From assembly GCA_963827765.1 (NCBI GenBank), contig CAWHBX010000002.1, forward strand, positions 912,684 through 976,683: a stretch of DNA of 64,000 nt. The letters run 5' to 3'. Shown here piece by piece: positions 7,299 to 55,769 of this stretch. Made by a program: the position numbers and the translations under genes. This stretch comes from an uncultured Acidobacteriaceae bacterium (GTDB lineage: Bacteria > Acidobacteriota > Terriglobia > Terriglobales > Acidobacteriaceae). Below the pieces are notes generated by a model. That model had not been told where the DNA came from, did no database searches, and saw only the letters and a program-made list of their open reading frames with translations. Positions within the stretch are counted from its first letter, which is position 1; the number at the start of each line of letters is the position of its first letter.

Positions 7299-7371
7299 TT
7301 AGGCGGGTCGAGTCGTTGGTAATAGCTCTGGCAAAATTAGGGTTCCCGCCTGGGCAGGGAGTGACTCTATA

Positions 7372-13078: not shown

Positions 13079-13273
13079 CCGCAACTCCTGTAGAGACGAG
13101 GCTGGCCTCGTCTCAGGTTGCGGAAGAATGAATCGAGGGAGCAGAAGCACATCTAAGGCGCGAGTACATGATCAGCGCCTTAGCGGCACGAGTGAACTCG
13201 TGCCCTTTCCCTTTTCGCAATGAAGTTTGGGTTTTTCAGGAGTCTGAGACGCGGCCAGCCGTGTCCTTACCAA

Positions 13274-14062: not shown

Positions 14063-14287
14063 GAACCCGTCATTCTTAAGTACGGTTCGTATCAGGGCAT
14101 GCCTTCAGGTATGCCGCAAGGTGCAGCGTGATTAGCGCGCCTTCAGCGCTGGGGCCGGAGATGGAAGTTGCGCAGCCCCTAAAGCGGCATCTGATTTCGA
14201 AGAACTTTCGGCATCGCTAAAGCGATGCCCCGATACGAAGCGCGACCTGGCTGAAGCCATGTTCCTTCAAAACTATCTGTCGTAGTT

Positions 14288-15043: not shown

Positions 15044-15077
15044 TGAACGCGCGCTGAGAATAAATTTTCAGAAACGG

Positions 15078-15863: not shown

Positions 15864-18454
15864 AATTTCTTTTTTCCAGGCGCGGAATGGCTGCGGTCGC
15901 GGTCCTGGTGCTAGTCCTGTTTCTGTGGCGACCGGGCGTGTATCAGTTGCGCAGCCGGATCGCCGGTTCCATCGGAAGTGCGCTGGGACGCAGGGTCTCG
16001 CTCGACAATGTGAGTTTGCATTTTCTGCCGCGACCGGGCTTCGATCTTAAGGGGCTGGTCATCTACGACGATCCGGCATTTAGTGCGGAGCCGATGGTCC
16101 GGGCGCAGGAAGTTTCCGCCGCGATCCGGTTTCGTTCCCTGCTCCGCGGACGGCTGGAGATGGCCCGGCTGAGCGCTAGCGAGCCCAACATCAATCTGGT
16201 GCGCAACCACGAAGGACACTGGAACCTGGCCAGCCTGATCGAGCGCAACGCACGGATTCCCGCGGCTCCGACGGGAAAGCCGGCCTCCGAGCGGCGTCCC
16301 GTATTTCCCTACCTCGAAGCCAGCGGTGCCCGTATCAATTTCAAACTCGGACAGACGAAGAAGTCATTCGCGCTGATGGATGCCGATGTGGCGCTGTGGC
16401 AGGATTCGGAGAATTCCTGGAGTGCGCGCATGAAGGCCGAGCCCGTGCGTACGGACTTCAATCTCACCGATACGGGGCTGCTCCAGATCGACGCCACGTG
16501 GCAGCGGGCCCCGAGCTTGCAGTCGACCCCAGTGCGGATCGCGATGCAATGGAAGGATGGGCAACTGGGACAGATCACCCAATTGCTAAGCGGGAAAGAC
16601 CGGGGATGGCGCGGCGGGTTAAATTTCACCGCGAACCTTTCGGGCACTGCGGAAGCGCTGCGGGTGGAGAGCCGGACTGCAATCGAAGATTTCCGCCGCT
16701 ACGATATTGTTGGCAGCGAGAAGATGCGCCTCGGCGCCGCTTGCTCGGGACGGTACAACGCGCTCACAAGTACGGTTGCCGATCTGCTCTGTGAATCGCC
16801 GGTGAGCGGCGGCACTCTTCGCTTGCGCGGAACATTTGCCGCAAGCGCACAAACTCCCGTCTACGATCTGACGCTCGAAGTCGAGAAGGTGCCGCTAAGT
16901 TCCGTGGTTCGATGGTTGCGGCAGGTAAAAAAACAGATTCCCGGCGACCTCACGGCGAGTGGATTGCTGAATGCGGAGTTTCGCGCCACGCGCAACGGGC
17001 CTCCTGTTCCTGAGGACGCGCGGCTCCTTCTACTGGAACAATTCACCGGTACGGGCGCTGCGACCGATGTGCGTTTGTCGTCGAATGCAGGAAAGGATGA
17101 GGTTGTTTTCGGCACGATTCCGCTCACGCTGGTTTCACGGGCCATAACGGCAGGCGATTCGCAGGCGGGCAGGCACGGTCATGCGCGGACCGAAGAAAAA
17201 GATTTGGAACCCGCTGAAACTCACCTGCGGGTTGGGCAGGCCGCAGTAACGATGAATGCTGCCGCGCCGGTGAACGCCGGCGGCTGGATATCCGCTGACG
17301 GTTATCGTTTTTTTCTGCGCGGCGACATGGAACTGAAAAATCTGTTTCGTCTGGACGATCTTCTGGGCCTGGGGATGGCGCGTCCGGCGGCGGCAGGCGC
17401 GGCCAAGTTGGATGTGAGTGTCTCCGGGCCGTGGCAAGGATTTGTGCCTCCTGCAGCGCTTGGGACGGCGCAATTACGGAACGTGCGCGCCGAGATGCGC
17501 GGCTTGAACACGCCGATTGAGATTGGCTCTGCGACTATGTCTCTGACTGCGGATGCGGTGTTGATGCAGAAGATTTCCGCCCGCATCGGAAGCACGCATT
17601 GGAGCGGCGGGGTCACGGCGCCTCGGCAGTGCGCCGCTTCTGGCGCGGCCCCAAATTGCGTGTTTCAATTCGATCTCACCGCCGACCAGCTTTCGACGGG
17701 AGATCTCGCGGAATGGTTCACGCCGCATCCCAAAAAACATCCGTGGTACCGTATTTTGAATTTTGATTCCAATTCCAATAACACGCAGGGCTTTTCGCCG
17801 CTGCTCGCGATTGAGGCGCGTGGCAATCTGCAGGTTGACCGGTTCGGATTGAAGAAGATGTTGGCGACCGAGGTTGGGGCGCAAGCGGCGGTGGATGGAG
17901 GCAAGATTACGCTGACCGGCCTGCACGGACAGCTTTTGCAGGGCATGCATCAGGGAAACTGGACGATTGATTTGTCGAGTCAGCCGCCGCGGTACCAGGG
18001 CGGAGGCGCGTTGAAGAACATCTCGCTGGCACAGGTGGGCGCGTTGATGAACGATGCCTGGATTGCCGGAACGGCCGACGGGAGTTTGGCGCTGGATGGA
18101 TCCGGAGACAGCATTCGCGATTTACTGGCGCACTCCGATGGCCAGTTGAAGTTCACGATGCGGAACGGGAGCCTGCCTCACATTACAATTCCGGGCTCGT
18201 CGGGGCCTCTGCCGGTACACCGGTTCGCGGGAGAACTGCGCTTGAAAAAAGGCGCCTGGGAGCTATCTTCAGGGCGGCTGGAATCGCGCGACGGCATTTA
18301 CCGGATCGGCGGGACCGCATCCCCAGCTAGCGGTTTGGATTTTAGTTTGACGAATGGCAACGGGCAATCCTGGATGCTCAGCGGAACGCTCGCCAAACCG
18401 CAGGTCGCGCCGGCCGGTTGTGGGGAAGCCACTGCGAAGATTGTGAAACCGTAA
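15860..18454 (+). CDS. AsmA family protein
   Basis: N-terminal TM segment plus an AsmA-like start (GRRVSLDNVSLHFLPRPGFDLKGLVIYDDPAF...EPNINLVRNHEGHWNL). The GTG start overlaps the lepB stop. Confidence 0.75.
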   Translation: MKFLFSRRGMAAVAVLVLVLFLWRPGVYQLRSRIAGSIGSALGRRVSLDNVSLHFLPRPGFDLKGLVIYDDPAFSAEPMVRAQEVSAAIRFRSLLRGRLEMARLSASEPNINLVRNHEGHWNLASLIERNARIPAAPTGKPASERRPVFPYLEASGARINFKLGQTKKSFALMDADVALWQDSENSWSARMKAEPVRTDFNLTDTGLLQIDATWQRAPSLQSTPVRIAMQWKDGQLGQITQLLSGKDRGWRGGLNFTANLSGTAEALRVESRTAIEDFRRYDIVGSEKMRLGAACSGRYNALTSTVADLLCESPVSGGTLRLRGTFAASAQTPVYDLTLEVEKVPLSSVVRWLRQVKKQIPGDLTASGLLNAEFRATRNGPPVPEDARLLLLEQFTGTGAATDVRLSSNAGKDEVVFGTIPLTLVSRAITAGDSQAGRHGHARTEEKDLEPAETHLRVGQAAVTMNAAAPVNAGGWISADGYRFFLRGDMELKNLFRLDDLLGLGMARPAAAGAAKLDVSVSGPWQGFVPPAALGTAQLRNVRAEMRGLNTPIEIGSATMSLTADAVLMQKISARIGSTHWSGGVTAPRQCAASGAAPNCVFQFDLTADQLSTGDLAEWFTPHPKKHPWYRILNFDSNSNNTQGFSPLLAIEARGNLQVDRFGLKKMLATEVGAQAAVDGGKITLTGLHGQLLQGMHQGNWTIDLSSQPPRYQGGGALKNISLAQVGALMNDAWIAGTADGSLALDGSGDSIRDLLAHSDGQLKFTMRNGSLPHITIPGSSGPLPVHRFAGELRLKKGAWELSSGRLESRDGIYRIGGTASPASGLDFSLTNGNGQSWMLSGTLAKPQVAPAGCGEATAKIVKP

Positions 18455-42332: not shown

Positions 42333-42409
42333 GGGCGGTTAGCTCAGTTGGTTAGAGCGCCTGCCTTACAAGCAGGAGGTCGCAGGTTCGAGTCCTGCAC
42401 TGCCCACCA
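42333..42409 (+). tRNA. tRNA-Val (anticodon UAC), encoded CCA
   Basis: Hand-folded: GGGCGGT acceptor, TAGCTCAGTTGGTTAGAGC D-arm, anticodon stem cctgc/gcagg with loop cTTACAa, GGTTCGAGTCC T-arm. Confidence 0.9.
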
Positions 42410-42470: not shown

Positions 42471-42640
42471 CTATTGACTCTTAAGGTATTGACCAACTAG
42501 TAGAGTGGGGTACCCCCCTCCCCCCCGGTCTATTGGAATCATAGGGTTAGCTCGCGACCCCATTGTAAAATATAGATTCCAGGCTGGTTATCCGTAAAAT
42601 CTAGACAACATTGGAGTTAGTGGCCATTTTTTCGGGGCGG
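42471..42640. repeat. Left inverted-repeat module (AT-rich, GC-hairpin core at 42491-42541)
   Basis: The reverse complement of 52793-52845 aligns to 42491-42541 at roughly 80 percent by hand. Weaker similarity continues inward. Confidence 0.7.
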
Positions 42641-42750
42641 AGTTGGGCTGGGTCTTGAAAACAAAGGAGTTACGACTTATTAGGTCGCGCAAAATCTAGA
42701 TTTCAAAGAACTTAGATCCAAATACGGTCACGGCCACGTTTGGCTGTAGG

Positions 42751-42885
42751 CTAGAACTGGTCTCATAAATGGTTCTCCGATCAGACTGTGCATCCCTCAG
42801 GGGCTAAAGCCCGCATTTTTATTGGCCGGTAGTGGCACGGCTGAAGCCGTGCCCTTCCCAAAACCATTTATGAGACCGGTTCTAG
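42751..42885. mobile_element. MITE-like element: 24-nt terminal inverted repeats around two small GC hairpins
   Basis: ctagaactggtctcataaatggtt (42751-42774) compared with aaccatttatgagaccggttctag (42862-42885), with one mismatch. Confidence 0.6.
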
Positions 42886-42980
42886 TTTTATTATAGTCGC
42901 CGATGTCAAATGGGGGAATGGCGGTGGGGCTGGAGAGGGCGCGATTGTCGCACAGCATACAAGTCGCGTTGAAATGGATT

Positions 42981-43005
42981 GGGGCGCGGAAGCAGTCCGC
43001 GCCCC
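42981..43005 (-). terminator. Stem-loop downstream of the S53 peptidase gene
   Basis: ggggcgcgga agcag tccgcgcccc. It lies 36 nt after the stop on the minus strand. Confidence 0.55.
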
Positions 43006-43040
43006 AGCTTACAAATCGGCCAACCACAAGAACATTGTCC

Positions 43041-46000
43041 CTACTGCACGACCATCGTCGTTACTGGAGTTGAGTTCACCGCCGTCGGGCCTTCGGTTGC
43101 GGTCACGGTGACAGTGTATGTGTTCGGCAGAGTTGTCGGTGACAGGGCTATCGAAGCGGTGCCTGACTTGTCCGTCTGGGCCACGGAGGTTGCTTTGATG
43201 GTTACCGGGGACGTCAGCGAACCGGATACCGTCGGAGCTGTGAACAGGCCAGTAGCATCAATCGAACCTTCGGATGCAGTCCATGTGACTCCCTTGTTGG
43301 AGGAGTCGTTGGTGAGGGTCGCGGTAAACTGAGCCGTTTGACTCGGCCAGCCGGAATTGTTGGGGAAAATGCTCGCCGGGCCGCTGACCGCGACGGTGAT
43401 GGGTTTCGAACTGCTTCCGCCGCAAGCTAGCATGAACCCGAAAAGCGCGAGCGAAAAACAGAAGAGGGCGATCGCCGAACGCTTCGATACTCTTCGGCTG
43501 ACTTTCCCGCGCATGAGTCCCAGCATCACGAAGCCCGCGATAGGCAGCGTCAGCGCGAGCCACGGAGAGCGGTTGTCCGCTCGGTGGCGCAATTGCGAGC
43601 CCGTTCCGGTGTTCGGGCCTGCGGTTGTTATGGTCATTGAAACCGTAGTTGCGCTGGACGTGTCTGCCGCAATCGTCGGCGGATTGAAGACGCAACTGCT
43701 GTTCGTCAGGGTCGGGTCAGTGGGAGAGAAGCTGCAACTAAAAATCACCGTGCTGGTGAATGCGGGCGACGAGGCTGGAGTGGTTGGAGTGGCGAGGAAG
43801 GTATAAGGCACAGTCGTCTGAGTCGTCTGTCCCGCCAAAACTGTATGCGAAGAGGGGCCATTGCTAACGAAGGTGAAGTTGGGTGCCGTGACATTCACGA
43901 GCGCGGGCGAGGCGGTTGTGTCGGCTGACGTGTTGTTGGCGTCGCCGGGGTAGTAAGCGTTAATGTTGTCGGCACTGATTGGAAGAGAGGCCACGGATTC
44001 GTTCGCGGATGACAACGACAAGGTGGCGACACCGCTGCTGTTTAGAAATGCAGTGCCGAGGGAACTCGGAGCGCCGGTAACGTAGAAGGTCACTTTCCCA
44101 ACCGCTGTCGTCGGAGACGTCACCGTTGCCGTCAGCGTTAAGCTCTGACCAAATACGATGCTGCTCGCAGAAGCTCCGATGGTGACGGTGGGCGTGGCCC
44201 TCGATGCGTTCCAGGCGACGGCGAGTTTGTAGGCATCCACCGAGCCGAGGCCGGTGACCAGGTTGTAATTGGTGGTTGGGTCAGCGTCATAGGCATTGAA
44301 GCCCAGGAAGCCCGCATTCGCGCCAGAGCTGGGGCACTGTAGCGCAGATGGCCACGGGTCCCCGCTGACTCCCGAGGGGGTACCTTCCGTACACCACGCG
44401 CCATTTGAATAAGAGCCGCTTGTCCCGGTAATGACGGGATGGAAAGCGTGGTTGGTGGAGTTCGCCGCAGCGAGATTGTAGAGAGTCAAGTTGATGTTGC
44501 CGAGGCCCCCGGTTGCTCTGAGATACTGATTGAGCAGGGTCACCATGCCAGCAAAAACTGGCGTGGAAACTGAGGTGCCGCCAAAGATGGAGCAAGGCCC
44601 CGTTTGTGCGAAGCAGGCGTTGAGCATATCCGAAATGCCCGTGCTAGGGGAGTCGCAAACACTGCCGGCGCCGGTCCCACCGAGCGCAGCCTCCTGCGTG
44701 CAAATGAGATAGCCGGGGAAGTTCGGAGAGGCCAACAGGGAGACGTCGGGTGAATAACGTGCCGGAGTACTCGTCGTCATGCCGAAACCGCTGGGGTTGA
44801 TTGCGCTTGCGCTGATGCCAGACTGCCAGGAGGGTTGCGGGAAGCCATCTGTACAAACGCCGTTGTCGTCGATTGTGAAACAGTTGCTGACGCCACCGCC
44901 GCCGGCAGAAATGCCGAGGGCTGTTTGCGCACTCGCCCAGCTATCGACTCCGGCGACTCCGTTGAGGGTGCAGGGACTCGAGGGCGTGCAGAGCAGGCCG
45001 AATTCCTCGGCGTCGTTCCAGGGTTGCTCGGTAATATAGCCTTTCGCGGAAGCGCCGCCGCTGCCGTTGGATAAGTTCCAGAATGAGGAGCTGTACTCGT
45101 TAGGGTTGATGGCAGGGATTGACGTGCCGCCAACTCCGGTGACGTACTGGCTACTGGCGGGATAGGCGACCGCGTATCCGTTCTCTGCGAGGTTAACCCC
45201 GTAGTCGCACTCGGCCGCACCGGTATCGCCCGCGGAGTTCAAAAAAGTGATGCCATAGAGGTTGGCCGCTTGCAGTTCCGCCTCATCGGAGGTGAAGGTT
45301 CCTTCGCCGGTTCCTGTATGCCCATCATTGAAGAGTTCGCAGGGAGACGTATAGCTCATGGTGATGACGGGCGCGACAGTGTTGTCAACCGCGTAGTACC
45401 AAGAGTCCCAGACGCCACCGCCGTTGAAATCGGTGGCAGTGACAAAGATGACCTGGGCTTTGGGGGCAGTAGCGCCAGACCATTCGAGATCGAGGTCGGC
45501 TTCGGGCAAATCGTCGTAGCCGTTTGGATCGTCATAGATGGTCTCAGCGCTACCGTTCACGAGGATGTACTTAAAGTTGGAGGTGTCGCAGGCGGTGATG
45601 ATGTCGGTGGTGGTAGTGCAGCTGATTGCCGAAAGGCCGAAGTTTTGGCGGAAGTTGGTCAAGTCGCTCTGGTAAATCCCGGTCTGGCCCATGACGGCGA
45701 GTGATTGCCCGGTACCGTCCAAACTGGTTTGAAGGGTGCCGACGTCGTAGATGGCGGCAATGTCGCCCGGAGCCAAAAAGAAATAATTATTCCCTTTGTA
45801 GGCAAACGTGTAGGCCGGCTCGCCGCGCCGGGCCTGCGATTTCGGACGGAAATTGCTCAATCCGCGAATTCCGGTCACGACGCCGGAGAGCGCGGCGGGA
45901 ATCGAGGGCGCGGTAGTGTTGGAGAAGTGCTTCTCTCCGTTGACATCGAAGTTGTGAATCTCGGTCTGGAAAGCGCTCTCAGCTTGGGCTGCGGTCCCGC

Positions 46001-46481
46001 TGAAAACGATAAAGTTGCGGGCGCGCGCAACCCGGACAATGGTAAACCCCTGTGACTGGAGCCATGCGGTGAGCTTCTGAATGTCGTTGGGGCTGAGACC
46101 GAAGCGGTCCGCATATTGCTCGGGTGTGAGCCACTTGTGATAGAGCGGTGAGCGGGGATCCTGTTGTTGCGCCAGAAGCTGGTCCATGGCCTTCTGTTGG
46201 CTGGCCGAGGGCACGGTGAGCAGCGTGATGTAGCCGAGCTTGAGTGACGGATCGACGCGGCCCTGGTCGAACTGCGGCTGAGCCTTCAGAGGAACGCCCG
46301 CCGAAAGCTTGACGAGTTGTTGAGCAACGACAGGGCCAGCGATGCGGTCGGGCGCGGCGGCGAAGACGAGAGTGGAAAAGATCAGGACGCAGAAGATGAG
46401 CGTCGAGAGTTTGGATGTGGAAAAGCTGGATGACAACAGACAGGCCGAGGACGAACGTCGCATGGTCACTCCGTGGTGCAA
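43041..46481 (-). CDS. S53 (sedolisin/kumamolisin) family serine peptidase with Ig-like repeats, an internal TM hairpin and a C-terminal Big_2-like domain
   Basis: Pro-kumamolisin activation domain (PLYHKWLTPEQYADRFGLSPNDIQKLTAWLQSQGF). Catalytic-Ser motif GGTSVSTPVFAG. Ig-like repeat region. VTWTASEGSIDATGLFTAP. Confidence 0.85.
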   Translation of the reverse strand: MHHGVTMRRSSSACLLSSSFSTSKLSTLIFCVLIFSTLVFAAAPDRIAGPVVAQQLVKLSAGVPLKAQPQFDQGRVDPSLKLGYITLLTVPSASQQKAMDQLLAQQQDPRSPLYHKWLTPEQYADRFGLSPNDIQKLTAWLQSQGFTIVRVARARNFIVFSGTAAQAESAFQTEIHNFDVNGEKHFSNTTAPSIPAALSGVVTGIRGLSNFRPKSQARRGEPAYTFAYKGNNYFFLAPGDIAAIYDVGTLQTSLDGTGQSLAVMGQTGIYQSDLTNFRQNFGLSAISCTTTTDIITACDTSNFKYILVNGSAETIYDDPNGYDDLPEADLDLEWSGATAPKAQVIFVTATDFNGGGVWDSWYYAVDNTVAPVITMSYTSPCELFNDGHTGTGEGTFTSDEAELQAANLYGITFLNSAGDTGAAECDYGVNLAENGYAVAYPASSQYVTGVGGTSIPAINPNEYSSSFWNLSNGSGGASAKGYITEQPWNDAEEFGLLCTPSSPCTLNGVAGVDSWASAQTALGISAGGGGVSNCFTIDDNGVCTDGFPQPSWQSGISASAINPSGFGMTTSTPARYSPDVSLLASPNFPGYLICTQEAALGGTGAGSVCDSPSTGISDMLNACFAQTGPCSIFGGTSVSTPVFAGMVTLLNQYLRATGGLGNINLTLYNLAAANSTNHAFHPVITGTSGSYSNGAWCTEGTPSGVSGDPWPSALQCPSSGANAGFLGFNAYDADPTTNYNLVTGLGSVDAYKLAVAWNASRATPTVTIGASASSIVFGQSLTLTATVTSPTTAVGKVTFYVTGAPSSLGTAFLNSSGVATLSLSSANESVASLPISADNINAYYPGDANNTSADTTASPALVNVTAPNFTFVSNGPSSHTVLAGQTTQTTVPYTFLATPTTPASSPAFTSTVIFSCSFSPTDPTLTNSSCVFNPPTIAADTSSATTVSMTITTAGPNTGTGSQLRHRADNRSPWLALTLPIAGFVMLGLMRGKVSRRVSKRSAIALFCFSLALFGFMLACGGSSSKPITVAVSGPASIFPNNSGWPSQTAQFTATLTNDSSNKGVTWTASEGSIDATGLFTAPTVSGSLTSPVTIKATSVAQTDKSGTASIALSPTTLPNTYTVTVTATEGPTAVNSTPVTTMVVQ

Positions 46482-46673
46482 AAGGATTGTGGGGAACCTG
46501 GAAGCATTATCAATGTTTCCTGCATGTCAGATCAAGTTATTCTTCGGGGGGTTGTACGGCGGGAAACTGTTTAGTTAGTCCTTGTACCAAAGTTACATTG
46601 ATTCCGCGTCGGCGGCTGGCGGACCGGAGCGGCATTCGAGTCCGGAGCGGTGTGCGGGCAACACTCTCAAAAC

Positions 46674-46746
46674 TGTCATCCCGAACGAAGTGAGGGATCT
46701 GTATTTTGCGGCGAACTACAGATCCCTCACTTCGTTCGGGATGACA
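46674..46746. repeat. 73-nt palindromic REP/MITE-like element (same family as 20074-20146), followed by a half copy at 46761-46786
   Basis: The loop sequence ttttgcggcgaactaca is shared with the 20074 copy. The arms differ by a few substitutions that are mirrored in both arms. Confidence 0.85.
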
Positions 46747-46797
46747 ATTCATAAAAAGCAGGTCCTTCGCTACGCTCAGGATGACAATTGAAAAAAG

Positions 46798-48591
46798 CTA
46801 AACTTCGGCAAGTTCCTCTTCCAATAACTGCTTGTTATAGAGGTCGGTGTAATAACCGTTGCGGGCGATGAGTTGGTCGTGGGTGCCGAGCTCGACGATG
46901 CGTCCCTGGTGGAGGACGGCGATGCGGTCGGCGTTGCGCACCGTGGACACGCGATGAGAGATGAAGATGGTAGTGCGTCCGCGCATGATTTCGCGGAGAT
47001 GGTTGAGGATTTTGTCTTCAGTGTGGGTATCCACGCTGGAGAGCGCGTCGTCGAGGATGAGGATGCGCGGGCTGCGGAGCAGGGCGCGGGCAATGGCGGT
47101 GCGCTGCTTCTGGCCTCCGGAGAGCGTGATACCACGTTCGCCGACCGTGGTGCTGAAGCCTTCGGGGAAACTTTCAATGTCGTTGGCAATGTTGGCGGCT
47201 TCGGCGGCGGCTTTGATGTCGTCGAGCGCGGCCTCGCCATCTTCATGCGCTATGCCGAAGGCGATGTTTTCGCGGATGGTGTCGCTGAAGAGAAATGTTT
47301 CCTGGGGAACGAATCCGATGTTGCGGCGCAGGGCATCGAGAGGAAACTGGCGGATGGGGCGGCCGTCGATGAGGACGGCACCCGGCTCGGCGTCATAGAT
47401 GCGCGGGATCAGATTGACCAGCGTCGTCTTGCCGGAGCCGGTGGGGCCGACGATGGCCAGGCTGGAGCCGGCGGGAATGCGCAGGTTGATGTCTTTGAGA
47501 ACGGATGTTCCGTTGTAAGCGAAGTTGAGATTGCAGAATTCGATTTCGCCGAGGAGATCGGGTGATCGGAAGGTATGGTTTTCTGATGGCCCGATGGCCC
47601 GATCACCCGATGACCCGATCTCATTGGCGATCTCGGGCTGCTCGGAAAAAATTTCGTCAATGCGCGCCATGGACGCGGTCCCGCGTTGGAAGATGTTGAC
47701 GACCCATCCGAGAGCGATGACCGGCCAAGTGAGTTGAATCATGTAGGTGTTGAAAGTAACGAACTTGCCGACGGAGATCTTTCCTAGCAGGACTTCTCGT
47801 CCTCCGAGCCACAGCACGATGACGACCGCCGCGCCCAGCATAAGTTCCAGCGTGGGCCAGAGCATTCCCATCAGACGGACCAGTCCGAGACTGCGGCGGA
47901 TGTATTCCTGATTGGCGCCCTCGAAGGCGGCGATCTCGGCCTGTTCCTGCACATAGGCGCGAATGACGCGGGCTCCAGAAAAATTTTCCTGGGCGCGGGC
48001 CGAGATGTCGGAGAACATGGCCTGAATGCGCTCGAAGCGCTCGTGAATGCGGCGTCCGAAATACTGGATGGCGATGCTCGCGATGGGCAGCGGCAGAAAG
48101 GCGTAGAGGGTGAGCTTGGGGCTGATGGCGAGCATGAAGCCCAGCGCACCGGCGGTGAAGACGATGGTGTTGGCCGAGTACATGATGGCGGGGCCGAGCA
48201 GCATCCGCACAGCGTTGAGGTCGTTGGTGGCGCGCGCCATAATATCGCCAGTGCGGTTGCGCTGATAGTAGGAGAAAGACAGGCGCTCGAGGTGCGCGAA
48301 CAAGTCGTTACGCAGATCGAACTCGATATCGCGGGAGATGCCGATGACCACCCAACGCGTCAGGAACTGGAAGATGCCCTTGGCCAGCGCGATGGCGATA
48401 ATGAGCAGCGCGTAGGTGAGAAGTTTCTGGCGAGTCACGCCGTGACGCAGAGCGTCCACCGCACGGCCGATCACCTGCGGAAAGAGTATCCAGATTCCGT
48501 TATTGAGTAAAACGCAGATCCCGCCCCAGACGAGACCGCCGCGATAGCGTTTCAGATAAGGAACGAGGGGGCGTAGGTTCTTCGGCACCAT
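46798..48591 (-). CDS. ABC exporter, fused permease/ATPase (MsbA-like type I exporter)
   Basis: Six-TM N-domain. Walker A GPTGSGKTT, signature LSGGQKQR, Walker B ILILDDA. Confidence 0.9.
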   Translation of the reverse strand: MVPKNLRPLVPYLKRYRGGLVWGGICVLLNNGIWILFPQVIGRAVDALRHGVTRQKLLTYALLIIAIALAKGIFQFLTRWVVIGISRDIEFDLRNDLFAHLERLSFSYYQRNRTGDIMARATNDLNAVRMLLGPAIMYSANTIVFTAGALGFMLAISPKLTLYAFLPLPIASIAIQYFGRRIHERFERIQAMFSDISARAQENFSGARVIRAYVQEQAEIAAFEGANQEYIRRSLGLVRLMGMLWPTLELMLGAAVVIVLWLGGREVLLGKISVGKFVTFNTYMIQLTWPVIALGWVVNIFQRGTASMARIDEIFSEQPEIANEIGSSGDRAIGPSENHTFRSPDLLGEIEFCNLNFAYNGTSVLKDINLRIPAGSSLAIVGPTGSGKTTLVNLIPRIYDAEPGAVLIDGRPIRQFPLDALRRNIGFVPQETFLFSDTIRENIAFGIAHEDGEAALDDIKAAAEAANIANDIESFPEGFSTTVGERGITLSGGQKQRTAIARALLRSPRILILDDALSSVDTHTEDKILNHLREIMRGRTTIFISHRVSTVRNADRIAVLHQGRIVELGTHDQLIARNGYYTDLYNKQLLEEELAEV

Positions 48592-48734
48592 TATTCTTTG
48601 TAGATGAAATTGTAGCAGCGCCGGGTGCGAATTTTCGGAGCGTCGTTGGGCAAGGGCCGATGAAAAAGCCGGGCGAGGACGGAGGTCCCGTTCCTCACCC
48701 GGATGGGAGAAAGTCAGAGAGTCAATGAGAAAAG

Positions 48735-49193
48735 TTAGTCCTCTGGCGGCGCAGGTGGCGCGTGCTTGCTCCAGCGTGCCGCGCGATTGGCCTCGATCTG
48801 GGCCAGCTTGGCTTTTTGATCGGCGGTCAGGATTTGCATGATTTGAGATTTGATGCGGGCATGCTCAACCTGGAGTTCGACCATCGTCTGCGAGTTTTGC
48901 GTGGCCAAGGCGCGCGTCTTGGCTTCATCAAATGGGCCACTCGTCTCAAGCGCCTTCATGGCCTCGTGGTTCTGGCGCATCTGCTCCATCAGTGGCTTCA
49001 TGGCCGGCTTTTCTTTTTCAAAGATCGCCTTGACTTGGTCGTGTTGCGCGCTGGTTAGATCGAGTTGATTGAGCATGTGGCGGAAGTCGCCGCCGGGGCC
49101 ACCGTGACCGTGCATGCCTTGAGCAATCGCGGCTGCCACGGCCAGCATTACAGCGGCGCCGATGGTGAGAATACGGATATGTGTCGATTTCAT
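48735..49193 (-). CDS. Periplasmic Spy/CpxP family (LTXXQ motif) protein
   Basis: Start at MKSTHIRIL with an aaaggag SD. Signal peptide present. LDLTSAQHDQV and LTADQKAKL are LTXXQ-like motifs. Confidence 0.7.
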   Translation of the reverse strand: MKSTHIRILTIGAAVMLAVAAAIAQGMHGHGGPGGDFRHMLNQLDLTSAQHDQVKAIFEKEKPAMKPLMEQMRQNHEAMKALETSGPFDEAKTRALATQNSQTMVELQVEHARIKSQIMQILTADQKAKLAQIEANRAARWSKHAPPAPPED

Positions 49194-49749
49194 TGGAAGC
49201 TCCTTTTGACCTGCTTGGTCTCGTAGGGTTCGGGAGGCAGCCCGAACATCTATGCTGATAAGAACACTATTTTCGAAAATATTGAGTAAAGAGTCGGTCA
49301 AGCGCGGTAAAGTTTTGTAAACGCGGAAAGACGCACTTGGCTTTTGGCCTTCAGCTAAAAGCTAATGGTTATCACCTGGATCCGGCGCATTCCGGCCGCG
49401 TGCCGGGACACAAAACCCGCGGTTGACGGCCTTGGGGGCCAGGGTGTGCAACTCCGACAAATTCCCAGCCTGCGATTAGGAATTTGCGAGAATGCAATAT
49501 CCGCCTCGTAACATCGGAATCGCCTGTAATCATGCCGGTTATCTTCGATCTCGACAGCACCGTGGTTGCCGTCTCCGCCTACGTCGGGTCTACGCGGCTG
49601 ATTGACGATGTTGTGCTGAGGCCGTGAATCGGGATAGCTGGGGAGATCGTCTGTTTATTGAACCGGAGGAGGAACAGATGTCTCCAGGCGGCGAAATCGC
49701 CGAAATGTTTTCGTGGACTCCGCGGCCCGAATGATTCCATACTCGAACC

Positions 49750-52326
49750 ATGCAAGGGTGGGGCGCATTCGTGAAATGGGCACTCGGGTTGGCGCTGGCG
49801 GCGGCGTGGGTGATGCCGTCTCGCGCACAGACGCTTTCGTCTTTTTCGCAGGCCGCCGCTTCCGAGCGCGTTTCTCCGGAGCACCGTGCCGCGGGGCAGC
49901 AGCTTGCGGTCGCCGTCACGGACGAAAACGGAGTGGCGGTCATGTCCGCTCGCGTGCAGTTGCAAGCGCCCCCGCCTGCCATGCCACTGCGCTCGGAAAC
50001 CGATTTCGCAGGGCATTGTGAATTTACAAATTTGTCCAGGGGAACCTACGAACTGCGCGTGGAGAAGACCGGTTACTACGCGCTGGTTCAGCCCGATGTA
50101 CAAGTCGGCGTCACTGCTAATGTGGACGTGACTCTTTCCCATCAGCAAGAGGTGCGGGAAGTGGTGAACGTGGTGGAATCCTCGCTGGCCATAGACCCGG
50201 CGCAGGTCTCCACCAGGGAGGAACTCAGCGGCGCGGAGATTGTTGATATTCCCTACCCCGCAACGCACGATTACCGCAACGCCTTGGCATTCATCCCCGG
50301 AATCACGCCCGATGCTTTTGGCCAGGCGCATGTGGCGGGCGCTGAGACCTATCAAACGCTGGTTTTGCTGGATGGTTTCAACGTGGGCCAGCCGACGAAC
50401 GGCGCGCTGGCAGTACGGACCAGCGTTGAGTCATTCCGCTCCATAGAAGTGACACCAGGCCGCGAATCGGCCGAGTTTGGCAAGGGCTCCGGCGGTGTGC
50501 TCGGTTTGAACACGCGCATGGGGGATGATCGCTTCCGGTTTACCTCGACGGATTTCGTTCCCGGGCTACAGAGCGTCAAAGGGATCTCGATCGGCGAATG
50601 GACGCCCATTTATACGATGTCTGGGCCGATTCGCAAGGGGAAGATGTGGTTTATCGACGCGCTCGATGGCGAATACGACAACACCATTATTCGGCAACTG
50701 CCATCCGGTTCCGATACCGACCACCTCTGGCGCGTGGACAATCTGGCAAAGTTGCAGTCTAACCTGACCGCCCGCAACATCGTGACGGCCAGCTTCCTGT
50801 CGAATTACTACCACGATCAATACGCCGGACTGTCGGCTCTCCAGCCGCAGCCGACCACCCCCACGGATGCCGAAACTGCCTATATTGGGTCGCTCAAAGA
50901 CCAATACTATTTCCGCGGCGGGGTGCTGCTCGAAAGTGGATTCGGTGTGGACCAGTACAGCGTGGCGCTCACTCCTCACGGAAATGGCCCGTACATCGAG
51001 ACTACGCAGGGGGCTGCGGGCAACTACTATTTGCACGAGAACACGCTGGCCCGCAGAATGCAGGGCCTGGCGAATCTTTACCTCCTGCCGCATGAGTGGC
51101 ACGGAAGGCACGACATCAAAGTTGGTGCCGACTTGGACCGTTTGAATTATGACGCGCAGTTCCTGCGGCAGCCAATTTCGTTCCTGCTCGCGAATGCGCC
51201 GCCGCAACCGTGTGCTACCGATGCGAATGGGGTTCCTCTGCCGTCAACGACGTGCGTGCGGTATTCGGTGTTTTCTGGCGGCGACTACTCCACAATTCAT
51301 AACTTCGAAACTAGCGCTTACGCCGAAGATCGCTGGCTGGTAACCAATCGTTTGCTCATTGAGCCGGGCGTGCGTTTTGACTGGGATGAAATCGTGCGGA
51401 CGCCGCTGTTCTCGCCCCGGCTGGCGGGCACTTACATCTTCGACGATGAAGGCAATACCAAGTTATCGGCGGGAGTTGGCATCGTCTACGACACAACCAG
51501 TCTGGGCTTGATCCATCAACCGTTCGAGGGCAAAAGACTAGATTACTTTTTTGTAAACGGAATTCTCTCAGCGCCCGTGCCGACCACATTCACGGTGAAT
51601 CGGAATACGCTCGCCGCGCCGCGGTTCTTGAATTGGAGTGTTGGCCTGGAGAAAAAACTGCCCGCTGCCATCTTTCTGAAAGCCGAGTTTCTGGAGAAAC
51701 GCGGCGCGCATGGCTTCGCCTGCAACACGCTGAATGGCGCGGTGGACGGCAACTTTCTCCTGGGCAATGGACGCGACGATCACTATGACGCCTTCCAGAT
51801 CGGCTTGCGCCGCCGCTTTCGCCAGCACTACCAGATCTTCGGCGCCTATACGCGCTCCCGCGCGCGCACCAATCAGGTATTCGATTTCAGTTTGGACATT
51901 CCCCTGCTGAGCCCGCAGTTGCCCGGTCCTTATCCCTGGGATACGCCCAACCGCTTGGTTAGTTGGGGTGTGCTGCCGTTTTTCAAGCTGCCCATGATCC
52001 ACAAGGTGGATCTGGTCTATTCAGCCGAAGCCCGCACCGGCCTGCCTTTCTATGCCACCACCGACCAGGGGGAGATTTCTCCGCTCTATCGTTTCGGGAG
52101 TCTTCGTCTTCCCTCTTACTTTTCCGCAAATCTGCAATTCGAAAAACGCATTCACTTGTTCGGGCGCTATTGGGCCCTGCGCGGAGGCTTCGACAACGTC
52201 ACCAACCACGCCAATGCTTATCTGGCCAACGGCGTCATTGATCCGACCACGCACCCGGTCCCGACTTTCCTGGACGGCAACGGGCGCACCTTCACCGGCC
52301 GCATCCGATACCTGGGACGGCAGTGA
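49750..52326 (+). CDS. TonB-dependent receptor-like outer-membrane protein with an N-terminal carboxypeptidase-regulatory-like domain
   Basis: Signal peptide. VTDENGVAVMSARVQL...NLSRGTYELRVEKTGYY (CarboxypepD_reg-like). Plug-like region and a long beta-barrel. Confidence 0.75.
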   Translation: MQGWGAFVKWALGLALAAAWVMPSRAQTLSSFSQAAASERVSPEHRAAGQQLAVAVTDENGVAVMSARVQLQAPPPAMPLRSETDFAGHCEFTNLSRGTYELRVEKTGYYALVQPDVQVGVTANVDVTLSHQQEVREVVNVVESSLAIDPAQVSTREELSGAEIVDIPYPATHDYRNALAFIPGITPDAFGQAHVAGAETYQTLVLLDGFNVGQPTNGALAVRTSVESFRSIEVTPGRESAEFGKGSGGVLGLNTRMGDDRFRFTSTDFVPGLQSVKGISIGEWTPIYTMSGPIRKGKMWFIDALDGEYDNTIIRQLPSGSDTDHLWRVDNLAKLQSNLTARNIVTASFLSNYYHDQYAGLSALQPQPTTPTDAETAYIGSLKDQYYFRGGVLLESGFGVDQYSVALTPHGNGPYIETTQGAAGNYYLHENTLARRMQGLANLYLLPHEWHGRHDIKVGADLDRLNYDAQFLRQPISFLLANAPPQPCATDANGVPLPSTTCVRYSVFSGGDYSTIHNFETSAYAEDRWLVTNRLLIEPGVRFDWDEIVRTPLFSPRLAGTYIFDDEGNTKLSAGVGIVYDTTSLGLIHQPFEGKRLDYFFVNGILSAPVPTTFTVNRNTLAAPRFLNWSVGLEKKLPAAIFLKAEFLEKRGAHGFACNTLNGAVDGNFLLGNGRDDHYDAFQIGLRRRFRQHYQIFGAYTRSRARTNQVFDFSLDIPLLSPQLPGPYPWDTPNRLVSWGVLPFFKLPMIHKVDLVYSAEARTGLPFYATTDQGEISPLYRFGSLRLPSYFSANLQFEKRIHLFGRYWALRGGFDNVTNHANAYLANGVIDPTTHPVPTFLDGNGRTFTGRIRYLGRQ

Positions 52327-52438
52327 TTCTCAGATATTGAGCACGACTTTTTCTAACGGCGTAATGGTGTTCGATCCTTAAATTGCCAATTACAAATTGC
52401 GGGTAGACCACATCCCCGGCGCGAATCGGAGAACTCAA

Positions 52439-52464
52439 GGAGGGGTGCGCCCCTTCGTTTTTTT
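52439..52464 (+). terminator. Rho-independent terminator after the TonB-dependent receptor gene
   Basis: ggaggggtgcgccccttc stem with a tgcg loop, followed by a T7 run. Confidence 0.7.
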
Positions 52465-52634
52465 GCCGAAACTCAAGAACGACGTGCGCGGGCTGGCCCA
52501 CCCTACCCGTTCTGACTCACGACGGTGGCCCGTCCAACCTCTGCTTGGGCGGGGCCTTTGACTTTTTCATCACAAATCATCTGTGACCACCATCACAGAC
52601 TTAAGCCCCACTGTCCGCGAAAATAGAGATCTGA

Positions 52635-52689
52635 TTGGGGCAGATTTGCGGAGCGTCAGTCACCCAGACGCTCCGCAAACCTGCCCCAA
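52635..52689. repeat. Long near-perfect hairpin (about 22-bp stem)
   Basis: ttggggcagatttgcggagcgtc ...gacgctccgcaaacctgccccaa. Confidence 0.75.
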
Positions 52690-52868
52690 ACCCATTTTCA
52701 GCGCTCTTTGACAACTTAACTCCTTATTCCGGAATACTTTACCTCTAAGTCCTTTAAGCCCAAAGACCTGGCGGGAATTTCTTCCTAAGTCCATGATTCC
52801 AGAAGACCGGGGGGAGGGGGGGTACCCCTCCCCATACTAGTTGGTTAGTAACGTAAGGGTAAATAATT
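52690..52868. repeat. Right inverted-repeat module (partner of 42471-42640, core at 52793-52845)
   Basis: See the left module. Core: atgattccagaagaccggggggagggggggtacccctccccatactagttggt. Confidence 0.7.
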
Positions 52869-52897: not shown

Positions 52898-54700
<1,803 letters not shown>

Positions 54701-54762: not shown

Positions 54763-55632
54763 CTACATGCTTCTAGGCGCGGAGCGCAGCGTCTCAATTG
54801 CTGCCTTCACCTTCGCTGAAACTGCCTCCGTGTCGCGCAGCGTCAACCCCGCCGTCGGAATGATTTCCCCAACCCGCATCTCCAGCGGCTGGCACTTGAT
54901 GTGGTAGGTGTTCATGGGCAGCAGGTCGAAGGTGCCGACGAGCGCGATGGGCACGATATCGGCTTGCGCTTTGATCGCCAGAAAGAATGCGCCCGGAAGA
55001 AAAGGTTGTATCTCGCCATCTCGCGTCCGGCCACCTTCGGGAAAGATGACCAGCGGCATGCCGCTGCGCAGGCTCCGCAGCGCCGACTTGATGGAGCCAA
55101 TGGAATCCGCCGGGCGCTGCTGATTGATGCACACTTGCCCCGAACGCTTCAGATGCCAGCCGACGAATGGATACGCCAGCAGTTCGCTCTTGAAAACAAT
55201 GCGAAATTGAAATGGCAAATAGACGTAGAGGATCGGAATGTCGAGCGCCGATGCATGCGTGACCGCATACACGCGCGGCTTGGAGTTGTCGAAGTGGTCG
55301 ATCTCGCCATTCGCGCCCGTGATTCTTACCGGCGAGAAGGTCGTCTTCATGATGAGCCACGACCAGAAGCGGGCAAGATCGTGCTGGATGCGTCCGTCGC
55401 GGTCGAAGAACGAGCAGAGCAGAGAAATCGTGCCTAAAATCAGCGTGTAGGCCCAGATCAGCGGGTCAAGAATGAAATAGGAGCGCAGACGGCTGGGCCA
55501 GCCGTGGCGCTTAAAGGAATGAATTGCAGGCTGCTCAGACCAGCCAGGGACATCCGTCTCCGAGCGCAGTTCGGCCCGCTCTTTTTCCAACTCCGCGGTT
55601 GTGGCGATCTTGTTCAAGGTTTCAAATCTCAA
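54763..55632 (-). CDS. plsC: 1-acyl-sn-glycerol-3-phosphate acyltransferase family protein
   Basis: HASALD (HX4D) and FPEGGRTRDG motifs. Confidence 0.85.
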   Translation of the reverse strand: MRFETLNKIATTAELEKERAELRSETDVPGWSEQPAIHSFKRHGWPSRLRSYFILDPLIWAYTLILGTISLLCSFFDRDGRIQHDLARFWSWLIMKTTFSPVRITGANGEIDHFDNSKPRVYAVTHASALDIPILYVYLPFQFRIVFKSELLAYPFVGWHLKRSGQVCINQQRPADSIGSIKSALRSLRSGMPLVIFPEGGRTRDGEIQPFLPGAFFLAIKAQADIVPIALVGTFDLLPMNTYHIKCQPLEMRVGEIIPTAGLTLRDTEAVSAKVKAAIETLRSAPRSM

Positions 55633-55642
55633 CTCACCAAAC

Positions 55643-55725
55643 TGTCATCCTGAGCGAAGCGAAGGACCTCTGCATTCTGGCGCTGCGAGCAAATGCAGGG
55701 ATCCTTCGCTTCGCTCAGGATGACA
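55643..55725. repeat. Palindromic REP/MITE-like element (tgtcatcctgagcgaagcgaaggac...gatccttcgcttcgctcaggatgaca)
   Basis: Same arm consensus as 20074 and 46674, with a different loop. Confidence 0.8.
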
Positions 55726-55769
55726 ACAAATACTAATGACAATACATACTAGAAACTCTGCATCGCTAC

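Follow-up and report, generated by a model that had tools for sequence, protein, structure and literature searches.

The window analysed here is a stretch of 64,000 nucleotides from an uncultured Acidobacteriaceae bacterium, and it contains a 10.4-kb gene block that lies between two inverted non-coding repeats. A tRNA-Val gene (anticodon tac; 42333-42409, + strand; ARAGORN, and Rfam tRNA at 77.4 bits) adjoins the left repeat and lies outside it. Between the repeats, Pfam identifies an S53 (pro-kumamolisin) peptidase with Big_3_5 (43041-46481, - strand), which is unlinked to the repeats, an ABC exporter (46798-48591, - strand), an LTXXQ/Metal_resist periplasmic protein (48735-49301, - strand) and a TonB-dependent receptor with CarboxypepD_reg, Plug and beta-barrel domains (49750-52326, + strand). 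An M2 (ACE-like) peptidase gene (52898-54700, - strand) forms the right outside flank. The tRNA and the four enclosed genes had been named in an earlier reading of the DNA made from its letters (the sequence-only reading), and the Pfam assignments confirm the four genes; as that reading had stated, the block holds no recombinase or transposase, and Pfam finds no integrase there either.

The left copy runs on the + strand from 42472 and the right copy on the - strand from 52865. An inverted-repeat search of the window gives arms of 55 nt (42472-42526 / 52811-52865, 71% complementary) and 44 nt (42507-42550 / 52785-52828, 84% complementary), and in the MAFFT alignment the left copy and the reverse complement of the right are near-identical across ACCAACTAGTA..GGGGTACCCCCC..CCCCCCGGTCT..TGGAATCAT..TTAG. 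This is far beyond chance: ACCAACTAGTA has two exact occurrences in the 64 kb, both at the repeat copies, where 0.17 are expected, and the core pattern gave 0 chance matches in 100 shuffles. The two copies are about 75% identical over their common 120 nt, and the arms share no perfectly identical run longer than 11-12 nt. The inverted repeat proposed by the sequence-only reading is real, and so is the extension it described on both sides. The outward similarity, which it put at about 20 nt, extends for about 35 nt and corresponds to a module that we call class A (TTGACT on the left and TTTACC on the right, 18 nt, then TAGTAG or TAGTAT). The weaker inward similarity is covered by matches to a family HMM (nhmmer) at 42507-42629 (E = 4.5e-23) and 52828-52682 (E = 5.7e-40), and the recurring words (GGAGTTA, ACTTAG and AAAATCTAG) are the ~30-nt word units of a repeat family. 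Both modules are AT-rich, with a GC content of 0.48-0.51 vs 0.57-0.63 in the surroundings, and both lie between gene 3' ends.

The right copy begins with its class A module (52829-52865, - strand), in which TTTACC (52863-52858), 18 nt and TAGTAT (52839-52834) precede GGGGA. Next comes the family head GGGGTACCCCCCCTCCCCCCGGTCTTCTGGAATCATGGACTTAG with the GGAAGAAATTCC hairpin and two word units ending AAGGAGTTA (52682-52828, - strand; model positions 1-147), a region that aligns with L001, L003, L005 and L006 and is included in alignment A2. The 3' structured module (52556-52715, - strand; nhmmer with the 3' module, E = 1.8e-51) opens with TTGTCAAAGAGCGCTGAAAATGG, which is followed by a long hairpin, GGGGCAG..CUGCCCC, whose arms lie at 52689-52667 and 52657-52635. 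CUGUGA..UCACAG (52600-52579) then forms a second, terminator-like hairpin that runs into a U-rich tail, and GTGATGAAAAAGTCAAAGG comes last. The predicted fold of the module has an energy of -72.3 kcal/mol (z = -7.25), and it is not coding, since the reading frame varies between copies. With head, units and 3' domain all present, the right copy amounts to a full element of about 310 nt.

The left copy likewise opens with a class A module (42472-42506, + strand; TTGACT at 42474-42479, 18 nt and TAGTAG at 42498-42503, including ACCAACTAGTA), which aligns to the right copy. The head GGGGTACCCCCCTCCCCCCCGGTCTATTGGAATCATAGGGTTAG and the first word units follow (42507-42629, + strand; model positions 1-122, alignment A2), and further units, with AAAGGAGTTA and AAAATCTAG..AAAGAACTTAG, occupy 42630-42750 (+ strand). 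The latter belong to a body of the 'winL' sub-type, which was aligned with L038, L093 and L106 after removal of a nested and unrelated 135-bp MITE (42751-42885). This MITE has 24-nt terminal inverted repeats, CTAGAACTGGTCTCATAAATGGTT and AACCATTTATGAGACCGGTTCTAG, that are 96% complementary. It is also found in L009 and is missing from the otherwise near-identical L086, and comparison of these two loci shows that its site is flanked by duplicated AAGCGTGGAT. The body ends at 42886-42910 (+ strand) with TTTTATTATAGTCGCCGATGTCAA; the ending ..GATTATAG-N6-7-GATGTCAA is conserved in L038, L093 and L106, beyond which the similarity ends. These three loci have the body in common with the left copy and not its upstream module. 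As aligned, the left copy is made of the same upstream module and head as the right copy and a body of another sub-type, split by a genuine MITE.

Members of the same family are found well beyond the window. A genome scan with the class A module and head matched five Terriglobales/Acidobacteriaceae contigs, together with one chance archaeal match, and a metagenome scan for the head found more than 120 soil or peat contigs among the matches listed. The family head has the pattern GGGGTACCCCCC..TGGAATCA..TTAG, followed by ~30-nt word units; written out more fully it reads GGGG-TA-CCCCCC(T)CCCCCC-GGTCT-nn-TGGAATCA-n5-TTAG, where GGGGTACCCCCC and TGGAATCA are invariant among the collected copies in part because the scan selected for them. 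The word units are degenerate, follow the pattern (Y)AAARTMTT..AAGGASTTA(G) and number 2-5 per copy, and element lengths are about 260-370 nt. Short palindromic upstream modules are optional. Class A, TTTACY-N18-TAGTAT, is carried by both window copies and stands ahead of copies in L001, L003, L005, L006, L016, L029, L041, L043, L051, L079, L101 and L120. The 3' domain, about 200 nt around the long hairpin, is present in about 40% of loci (~50 loci), and tandem heads occur in L005, L007 and L099. No match to the family was found in Rfam, in plasmids or in viral contigs. On these comparisons, the family is a dispersed, modular, non-coding intergenic repeat of Terriglobales (Acidobacteriota) that was previously uncatalogued.

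The distribution of the copies bears directly on why two of them bracket this block. A single copy is present in 116 of 125 anchored loci (93%; 808 kb of flank searched), and the 10 extra copies are in direct (4), convergent (3) and divergent (3) orientation. A further 166 kb of loci, retrieved for unrelated purposes, contained one copy (L134), and by extrapolation the copy number would be tens per genome. The neighbouring genes are unrelated from place to place, with diverse Pfam contexts, and the copies show no orientation bias relative to them. Of 12 proteins from the window, none has a homologue in the loci found first. The sequence-only reading had named dozens of dispersed single copies, unpaired around gene blocks, as evidence against a cassette, and this is the pattern observed. 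We therefore favor its third suggestion, an undescribed family whose members bracket the block by chance, which is supported by the >120 loci, the 93% of solitary copies and the pairs in every orientation. The two arms are diverged and ordinary members of one widespread dispersed family, and the block would not have been mobilised or inverted as a unit by them. We give this reading a probability of about three in four.

The first suggestion of the sequence-only reading was a mobile cassette or island, i.e., a non-autonomous transposon at 42.5-52.8 kb with the repeats as its terminal inverted repeats. The inverted repeats are indeed real, 55-80 nt long and begin with GGGG, convergent pairs enclose DNA in L085 (6.4 kb) and L062 (1 kb), and the S53 gene is without a close orthologue in relatives. 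However, homology continues for about 35 nt beyond the GGGG 'termini' into an outer module that solitary copies also have, divergent and direct pairs are no rarer than convergent ones, and the L085 pair encloses unrelated genes and an IS110 that splits one copy. No target-site duplication was found at the block ends and no filled/empty pair for the element. Because the ends differ (AGAGT on the left vs TCCCC on the right), the block has no recombinase, the 3' 25 nt of tRNA-Val has no second copy in the window and an S53 homologue occurs in another gene context, the cassette reading is not supported; with its cargo also unconserved and no transposase encoded, we consider it very improbable. The head starts GGGGTACC with ..TTAG about 40 nt in, and the window pair is inverted, as might be expected of the Tn3 family, whose 38-bp inverted repeats start GGGG and end ..TAAG, that of Tn4430 presumably starting GGGGTACC. 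Here, however, there is no 5-bp duplication, the copies stand alone, similarity runs on past either side of the 'inverted repeat', and no large recurrent cluster of transposase-sized proteins was found around the elements of the 125 anchored loci. MITEs such as Correia/NEMIS and RUP are likewise short, multi-copy, non-autonomous repeats with a higher AT content than the genome, and a true MITE lies in the same spacer here, but individual copies of the family are without terminal inverted repeats and target-site duplication, and none of 134 loci showed a related autonomous IS.

An invertible segment had been the second suggestion, in which the inverted copies recombine, either site-specifically or by homology. 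Their orientation would suit it, as would the sign of the GC skew, which flips opposite to the background from about 42 to 50 kb, and in L085 an inverted 3' module comes after a head, a hint that elements can be rearranged internally. Against this, there is no invertase or tyrosine recombinase in or beside the block, and the longest identical run of 11-12 nt is too short for efficient RecA recombination. Furthermore, the skew flip stops near 50 kb and does not reach across the TonB receptor gene to the right repeat, and tRNA-Ser is followed by a skew island of similar kind at 6-18 kb, where no repeat copy was found. Inversion between the arms is thus highly unlikely.

A different proposal, which is compatible with chance bracketing, is that a tRNA-Val hot spot accommodates a variable or acquired segment, independent of the repeats, at 42.4 to ~49.7 kb (S53, ABC exporter and LTXXQ). 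Beyond tRNA-Val every relative has different genes, with YdjC-PilZ-HemD-HemC-HemA conserved, and L133 has a phage-type integrase island there. The nearest non-self homologue of the S53 protein is 70% identical and in another gene context, vs 93% for M2 and 87% for YdjC, and the change in skew sign falls exactly at ~42 to 50 kb. But the block has no integrase, the tRNA 3' end has no direct repeat and GC content is not distinctive. We regard this proposal as tentative, short of even odds. Relatives whose M2 is 91-93% identical have the genes in the order Mur ligase, acyltransferase, M2, ThrRS and EF-G, and the element is absent beside M2 there. Judged by gene neighbourhood, the four block genes are not a conserved unit. 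Synteny with the relatives breaks directly 3' of M2, exactly at the right copy. Since synteny breaks there, the tRNA-Val flank is variable and the skew flips, a role in rearrangement may remain, and the repeats might mark past rearrangement points.

The sequence-only reading had also considered a structured RNA, and here the two parts of the element differ. In the 3' domain (alignment A3), 83% of cells are paired vs 33-49% when the partner is slid, and 20 cells are compensatory vs 7.7±2.3 in shuffles, with none of 500 shuffles reaching 20. Pairs of G·U outnumber A·C (62 vs 22), a sense-strand bias. The aligned copies show that the 3' hairpin is strand-specific and that the 3' domain folds as one strand; its covariation is modest. 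The structured-RNA idea thus stands for the 3' module of the right copy but not for the shared 5' module, which has no supported structure, and RNAalifold alone gave no consensus structure for either module. The 9-bp all-GC hairpin described earlier forms in the right core but not in the left, and at -24.7 kcal/mol (z = -1.07) it does not surpass composition-matched shuffles; the fold of the left core is less favourable than those of shuffles (z = +1.0).

These results touch on the possibility that the family consists of independently transcribed, trans-acting sRNA genes of ~260-370 nt, with a CCUCC anti-Shine-Dalgarno seed or AAGGA words as a protein sponge, and that the window copies are paralogous. 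In addition to the 3' domain with its G·U bias, this idea can draw on the terminator-like hairpin and U-rich tail at the end of the right copy, on the non-coding nature of the element and on one syntenic locus that keeps it in six diverged contigs (L014, L021, L035, L076, L105 and L111). In copies with class A, the two window copies among them, TTTACY-N18-TAGTAT ends 0-6 nt before the G-run; from its 8/12 sigma-70 consensus matches in the right copy, and a weaker match in the left, we infer that this module could be a promoter. Family-wide, however, sigma-70-like promoters starting at the G-run are not enriched (6 of 100 flanks vs 3.9±1.9 in shuffles), the shared 5' module is without supported structure, many units lack GGA, and tens of copies per genome, as extrapolated, would be unusual for an sRNA family. 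CsrB/RsmZ sponge sRNAs and CcsR/RsaE anti-Shine-Dalgarno sRNAs resemble the element in AAGGA words about 30 nt apart and a CCUCC-containing C-rich 5' tract, and differ in that here many units have no GGA, the units are not in conserved hairpin loops and the extrapolated copy number is far higher. A putative sRNA role is thus unlikely on balance.

Strand specificity could also point to mobilisation as ssDNA by an HUH/Y1 enzyme, in the style of IS200/IS605 PATEs or REP/RAYT, with cleavage at TTAC-like sites upstream and ..GTCAA sites downstream. The absence of terminal inverted repeats and target-site duplications and the strand-specific hairpins with G·T bias would fit, TTTAC..GTAAC/GGTAC immediately precedes the head in about 45% of upstream flanks, the sense strand is enriched in GTCAARG by 56 to 12 at 100-400 nt downstream, and Y1_Tnp genes or remnants lie <4 kb away in several loci. 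The left and right hairpins are, however, unrelated in sequence, classes B and C have no TTAC, and the terminal GTCAAAG is often part of an adjacent REP. The Y1 genes have different REP hairpins of their own on their flanks and are not clearly enriched, one being present also in the element-free locus L128. We regard this route as improbable.

Most likely, by analogy, the family is a repeat akin to BOX, REP/BIME or ERIC whose acting or spreading form would be the sense single strand, in the simplest case within a transcript. Such repeat DNA would build up in permissive gene-3' spacers, and the C-rich CCUCC head and AAGGAG-like words could base-pair with one another or with sequences of Shine-Dalgarno type. 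The BOX elements of Streptococcus pneumoniae, built of boxA, variable boxB and boxC, are also dispersed, non-coding and intergenic, with a conserved head module, a variable count of short units and an optional tail, and with no encoded transposase or clear target-site duplication. They belong to a different phylum and have no sequence similarity to the present family, in which head and tail are not complementary, a GC palindrome and then a poly-C tract form the head, and the tail is a structured domain of ~200 nt. REP/BIME (including RIP/RIB with IHF sites) and ERIC share hairpin formation, tens of copies (here extrapolated) and a preference for gene-3' or convergent spacers (here 29 convergent vs 17 divergent contexts). 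The best-conserved family words, AATCA-n5-TTA, resemble the IHF consensus, WATCAANNNNTTR. In contrast to those repeats, the elements here are much longer (270-370 nt) and asymmetric, have no flanking RAYT gene, and usually have T at position 6 of the IHF-like word, a putative IHF site. REP-type repeats are also the preferred target of particular IS, and here an IS1595-family IS prefers copies of the element as its insertion target.

The inverted repeat pair that a sequence-only reading had placed around the gene block is real, with arms at 42472-42550 and 52785-52865. Starting 62 nt downstream of tRNA-Val(tac) (42333-42409) there is a non-coding stretch that is AT-richer than its surroundings (GC 0.48-0.51 vs 0.57-0.63 around), in keeping with the AT-rich modules described beside this tRNA gene. 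The first ~80 nt of this left stretch return reverse-complemented at 52785-52865 in the alignment, and the inverted arms comprise a 55-nt pair with 71% complementarity (42472-42526 / 52811-52865) and a 44-nt pair with 84% complementarity (42507-42550 / 52785-52828). Exact ACCAACTAGTA is found at two places only in the window, both of them repeat copies, where 0.17 matches are expected, and the GC core of the pair gives 0 chance matches in shuffled sequence. The outer 35 nt beyond both heads are homologous to each other in inverted orientation and are part of the repeat. The 9-bp GC hairpin proposed for the core is present in the right copy but not in the left, and neither core outfolds shuffles of the same composition. 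Pfam assigns the genes between the arms as they had been read, i.e., an S53/pro-kumamolisin protein with Big_3_5, an ABC exporter, an LTXXQ protein and a TonB-dependent receptor. This block is flanked by a YdjC gene on the left and an M2 peptidase gene on the right.

Terriglobales carry a modular intergenic repeat family, dispersed and not catalogued before; both arms are ordinary, diverged copies of it and bracket the gene block by chance. A genome scan with the pattern ACCAACTAGTA-N2-8-GGGGTACCCC, using one genome per species, returned five Terriglobales/Acidobacteriaceae contigs, two of them from one MAG, together with one chance archaeal match. In four of the five Terriglobales contigs the similarity to the right copy extends for ~330 nt, from ..ATTTAC.. 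to ..GTGATGAAAAA. The metagenome scan, with the pattern GGGGTACCCCCC-N12-19-TGGAATCA, found the family head on at least 120 soil or peat contigs. The genes adjoining the copies are diverse from locus to locus, and homologues of 12 proteins encoded around the window repeats were all missing (0/12) from the first element loci. Copies were counted with an HMM of the first 150 nt in 125 anchored loci with 808 kb of flank. Among the matches listed, 116 of these loci hold a single copy, and the 10 extra copies, again among the matches listed, are 4 direct-tandem, 3 convergent and 3 divergent. One further copy lies in 166 kb of loci collected for other purposes. By extrapolation, a copy is expected about every 80-165 kb, which makes tens per genome, and a convergent partner within 10 kb is therefore an unremarkable coincidence. 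Thus, the count asked of the family shows dispersed, mostly solitary copies, inverted pairing around cargo is not the pattern, and it is the earlier suggestion of chance bracketing that the copy number bears out.

The many dispersed copies, each <600 bp, are non-coding and, within one clade, found only in intergenic spacers, next to genes that are unrelated from locus to locus. Their orientation relative to the adjoining genes is random, and convergent spacers are somewhat over-represented as sites (29 vs 17 divergent). The family has no matches among IMG/VR viral contigs or plasmids. With the Rfam 15 covariance models only tRNAs reach the gathering score; the best sub-threshold matches for the element are hairpin-like miRNA models, far under their cut-offs. 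Literature searches on the core sequence and on Acidobacteria repeats returned nothing relevant. In kind, the family is closest to the BOX, REP/BIME and ERIC elements, which are likewise non-coding, multi-copy and intergenic, with mosaic modules and a variable number of internal units. The novelty of the family itself is modest. Even so, a little-studied phylum gains a defined repeat family that is abundant in Terriglobales of peat and soil and has clear sequence signatures. With these signatures intergenic regions can be annotated, miscalls of islands or inverted-repeat-bounded cassettes avoided, hot spots of assembly trouble and rearrangement flagged, and target selection by an insertion sequence (IS) of the IS1595 family studied.

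A mobile cassette bounded by the repeats had also been suggested, and terminal inverted repeats are present at both ends of the block (55 nt at 71%, 44 nt at 84%). We reject this reading, since no target-site duplication lies directly outside the inverted repeats (outside the left head the 5 nt read AGAGT, outside the right head TCCCC), Pfam finds no recombinase, transposase or integrase in the four block genes and their flanks, and 116/125 loci are solitary among the matches listed. A search for a related autonomous element likewise gave none, the sole recurrent transposase near copies being of the IS1595 family and inserted into the element. The absence of a recombinase within or beside the block by Pfam also speaks against an invertible segment. 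An island inserted at tRNA-Val and bounded by the repeats fails because there is no integrase and the tRNA 3' end occurs once; its 3' 25 nt have a single occurrence in the window with up to 3 mismatches allowed. We also rejected an attL-like site with a core, an IHF site and arm sites, because there is no recurrent integrase within 4 kb of the copies and the two in the window lie in inverted orientation. A false lead is thereby removed: neither a novel transposon nor an invertible switch carries the envelope/proteolysis genes.

What lies downstream of tRNA-Val is probably a variable or acquired segment, but the repeats do not delimit it, and no evidence ties its mobility to them. On the left side YdjC-PilZ-HemD-HemC-HemA is conserved, and the genes beyond tRNA-Val are different in each of three relatives (L131-L133). 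In one of these, L133, the tRNA-Val side of YdjC (3000-9820) carries a phage-type integrase, an Mrr-like restriction enzyme, HTH regulators and a DDE transposase, and is a classical island at the site corresponding to the window's block. The best non-self homologue of the S53 protein is 70% identical and lies among unrelated genes. On the right side, four relatives (L127-L130) have an M2 peptidase 91-93% identical to that of the window, in the order Mur ligase, acyltransferase, M2, ThrRS, EF-G; neither ThrRS nor EF-G is in the window, and the element has no copy at E ≤ 10 in these four. The comparison with an empty site therefore gives a divided answer, as the element is missing beside M2 in the relatives but the junction is rearranged and offers no clean filled/empty pair. 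Synteny breaks at window 52898, the 3' end of M2, and the M2-ThrRS spacers of the relatives are hypervariable (0.7-1.8 kb) and hold a Y1_Tnp gene, a DNA methylase or hypothetical genes. Over 42-50 kb the GC skew runs from +0.10 to +0.18 in a background that is mostly negative (-0.135 to 0.00); this anomaly stops short of the TonB receptor gene, and its end does not coincide with the right repeat. A second positive-skew island, at window 6001-18000, comes after tRNA-Ser (6617-6706), and no repeat copy was found in it. Each of the two islands (skews of +0.08 to +0.18) begins directly behind a tRNA gene, and acquisition or inversion may account for them.

The anatomy of a copy was derived from an alignment of 103 non-redundant copies. 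The head consensus is GGGG-TA-C6-9(T)C5-8-GGTCT-nn-TGGAATCA-n5-TTAG, in which the constancy of GGGGTACCCCCC and TGGAATCA is imposed by the scan pattern. It is followed by a variable segment of ~12 nt, often a hairpin, and then by ~30-nt units of the form (Y)AAARTMTT…AAGGASTTA(G). Copies found by the HMM only have relaxed head motifs, e.g., TTAGAATCA, TGCAATCA or a T-tract replacing the C-tract, and retain AATCA-n5-TTA and the word units. Four classes of upstream module, each seen again at unrelated loci, can be told apart: class A (TTTACY…GTTACTAACCAACTAGTAT), which includes both window copies, class B with the palindrome TTGGCAAAGATTGCCAA, class C (TTCCC-n5-GGGAA) and class D (TTTAC-n6-GTAAC/GGTAC). 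By profile search, ~50 loci including the right copy have a 3' module, in which TTGTCAAAGAGCGCTGAAAATGG, a long hairpin GGGGCAG…CUGCCCC, a second hairpin CUGUGA…UCACAG and GTGATGAAAAA follow in this order. The left copy ends differently, with ..GATTATAG-n7-GATGTCAA at 42910. Its body is common to three other loci (L038, L093, L106), from which its upstream module differs, and the modules are therefore mosaic. Modules are thus optional and combined differently from copy to copy, and the number of internal units varies.

Some copies bear marks of further change. The two C-runs of the head differ in length from one copy to another (6-9 and 5-8 C), and T-runs sometimes take their place (alignment columns 8-35), as expected from slippage. 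In L062 (1437-2454) two near-identical complete elements lie tail to tail, a recent inverted duplication of ~1 kb across. In L085 (2329-2688) a head breaks off at position 69 and the 3' module after it lies on the opposite strand, which points to rearrangement within elements. A long (AGGTCTC)n microsatellite comes after the element in L032, from 11710 onward.

A MITE family had been named as one possible origin of the repeats. The family shares with MITEs its many short dispersed copies, but the single copies lack terminal inverted repeats, the 5' end (GGGGTACC..) being unrelated to the 3' ends (..GTGATGAAAAA or ..GATGTCAA), and four aligned copies show no target-site duplication of the element. 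An unrelated MITE of 135 bp with 24-nt terminal inverted repeats (CTAGAACTGGTCTCATAAATGGTT) is nested at window 42751-42885 and splits the left copy. The same MITE is present in L009 (about 460-620) and missing from the near-identical L086, where its site is marked by duplicated AAGCGTGGAT; these two loci are a filled/empty pair for it.

The only protein that recurs near copies is an IS1595-family transposase, at 8 loci. In at least five of these an IS of this family, with Zn_ribbon_IS1595 and DDE_Tnp_IS1595 domains, has inserted into the element; it has inverted repeats of its own and is bordered by target-site duplications of 8-9 bp (CTTAGGAAG, GTTAGGTG, TTCCAGAA), namely at L122 5780-8312, L102 263-2727, L002 970-2077, L126 14-1044 and L097 6733-9911. 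The element could be taken for the inverted repeat of this IS, a candidate that we discard since the IS has its own GGYAATAAT..CTTGAC repeats and makes its duplications in the element. Two or three of the insertions share one TTAGG target, ~45-53 nt from the start of the head, which suggests that the IS has a target preference for the repeat element. An IS110 left end of the bridge-RNA kind was also considered and rejected. The sole IS110 gene (L085) lies between the head and the 3' module of one copy and is therefore an insertion. An IS3 OrfA interrupts the element in L039. Since several IS interrupt the element, it is an IS target, and no enzyme can be assigned to it. The ends resemble those of Tn3 in the GGGG start and in ..TTAG ~40 nt in; this candidate is rejected, as there is no 5-bp duplication and no partner transposase, and the copies are solitary. 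Ends of the IS200/IS605 type (TTAC…TCAA) are rejected as well, since they fit only some classes and the end hairpins are unrelated. In several loci Y1_Tnp (RAYT-like) genes or remnants do lie within a few kb of copies, but the REP hairpins on either side of them are their own and differ from the element, and an element-free locus also has such a gene.

The suggestion that the repeat is a structured RNA holds in part. For the 5' module, RNAalifold predicts only an invariant 4-bp GGGG/CCCC stem, which does not support it. For the 3' module, RNAalifold predicts no consensus structure; its structure was specified by hand and the pairs were then counted on the 3'-module alignment. In this hand-specified structure 83% of cells are paired, vs 33-49% with the partner slid, and two-sided changes occur at 12 pairs in 20 cells, vs 7.7±2.3 cells in shuffles (0/500 reach this number), so that covariation support is modest. 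G·U pairs outnumber A·C (62 vs 22), and it is therefore the sense strand that pairs, whether as RNA or as single-stranded DNA. The 3' module of the right copy folds at -72.3 kcal/mol (z = -7.25), and this copy ends in a weak hairpin with a U-rich tail flagged by a terminator scan. Class A copies have a sigma-70-like TTTACY-N18-TAGTAT placed to start at the G-run, with 8/12 consensus matches in the right copy; family-wide, such a promoter is not enriched (6/100 independent flanks vs 3.9±1.9). A sigma-54 promoter in the class B palindrome TTGGCAAAGATTGCCAA was rejected because the GG-to-GC spacing is 2 nt too short, and a CsrA sponge because GGA is missing from many units. Neither reading frame considered is maintained: the small ORF (M)SKSAENGFGA.. 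is lost between copies, and the reverse-strand ORF ATGATTCCA.. is disrupted by the variation in C-run length. The element is non-coding.

Since the 3' domain is strand-specific and the head C-tract contains CCUCC, the element could have a transcribed or regulatory role or be mobilised as a single strand. That the family is a truly new functional class is unlikely. For a functional single-strand element new to bacteria, either a riboregulator class or an element moved as single-stranded DNA, we put the odds at roughly one in five. As a riboregulator, it would be a high-copy Acidobacterial class of ~300 nt whose poly-C/CCUCC head masks Shine-Dalgarno sequences. As a mobile element, it would be non-autonomous, with neither terminal inverted repeats nor a target-site duplication, and a Y1/HUH enzyme would move it in the form of single-stranded DNA. 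Either way, recognition would depend on the conserved head and the structured 3' domain, and an IS1595-family IS would have evolved to home into the element. To our knowledge, there is no experimentally characterised riboregulator in Acidobacteria; if the sense-strand hairpin domain is transcribed, the family would be an RNA candidate for this phylum.

The window holds two further hairpin repeats. A second family, with REP-like hairpins TGTCATCCYGARCGAAG(Y)GARGGATC, is found at 46663-46796 in the S53/ABC exporter spacer and at 55632-55735 in the acyltransferase/Mur ligase spacer; its hairpin arms measure 39 nt (92% complementary) and 34 nt (94%). A third hairpin repeat, ..AGTCAAAGGCCCCGCCC…GGACGGGCCACC, at about 52524-52556 on the minus strand, abuts the 3' end of the right copy, and copies related to it come after the element in other loci (L114, L086, L009). 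In L114, a RAYT-like Y1_Tnp gene has GCGGGCGAGGGCGCCCGC hairpins on both sides.
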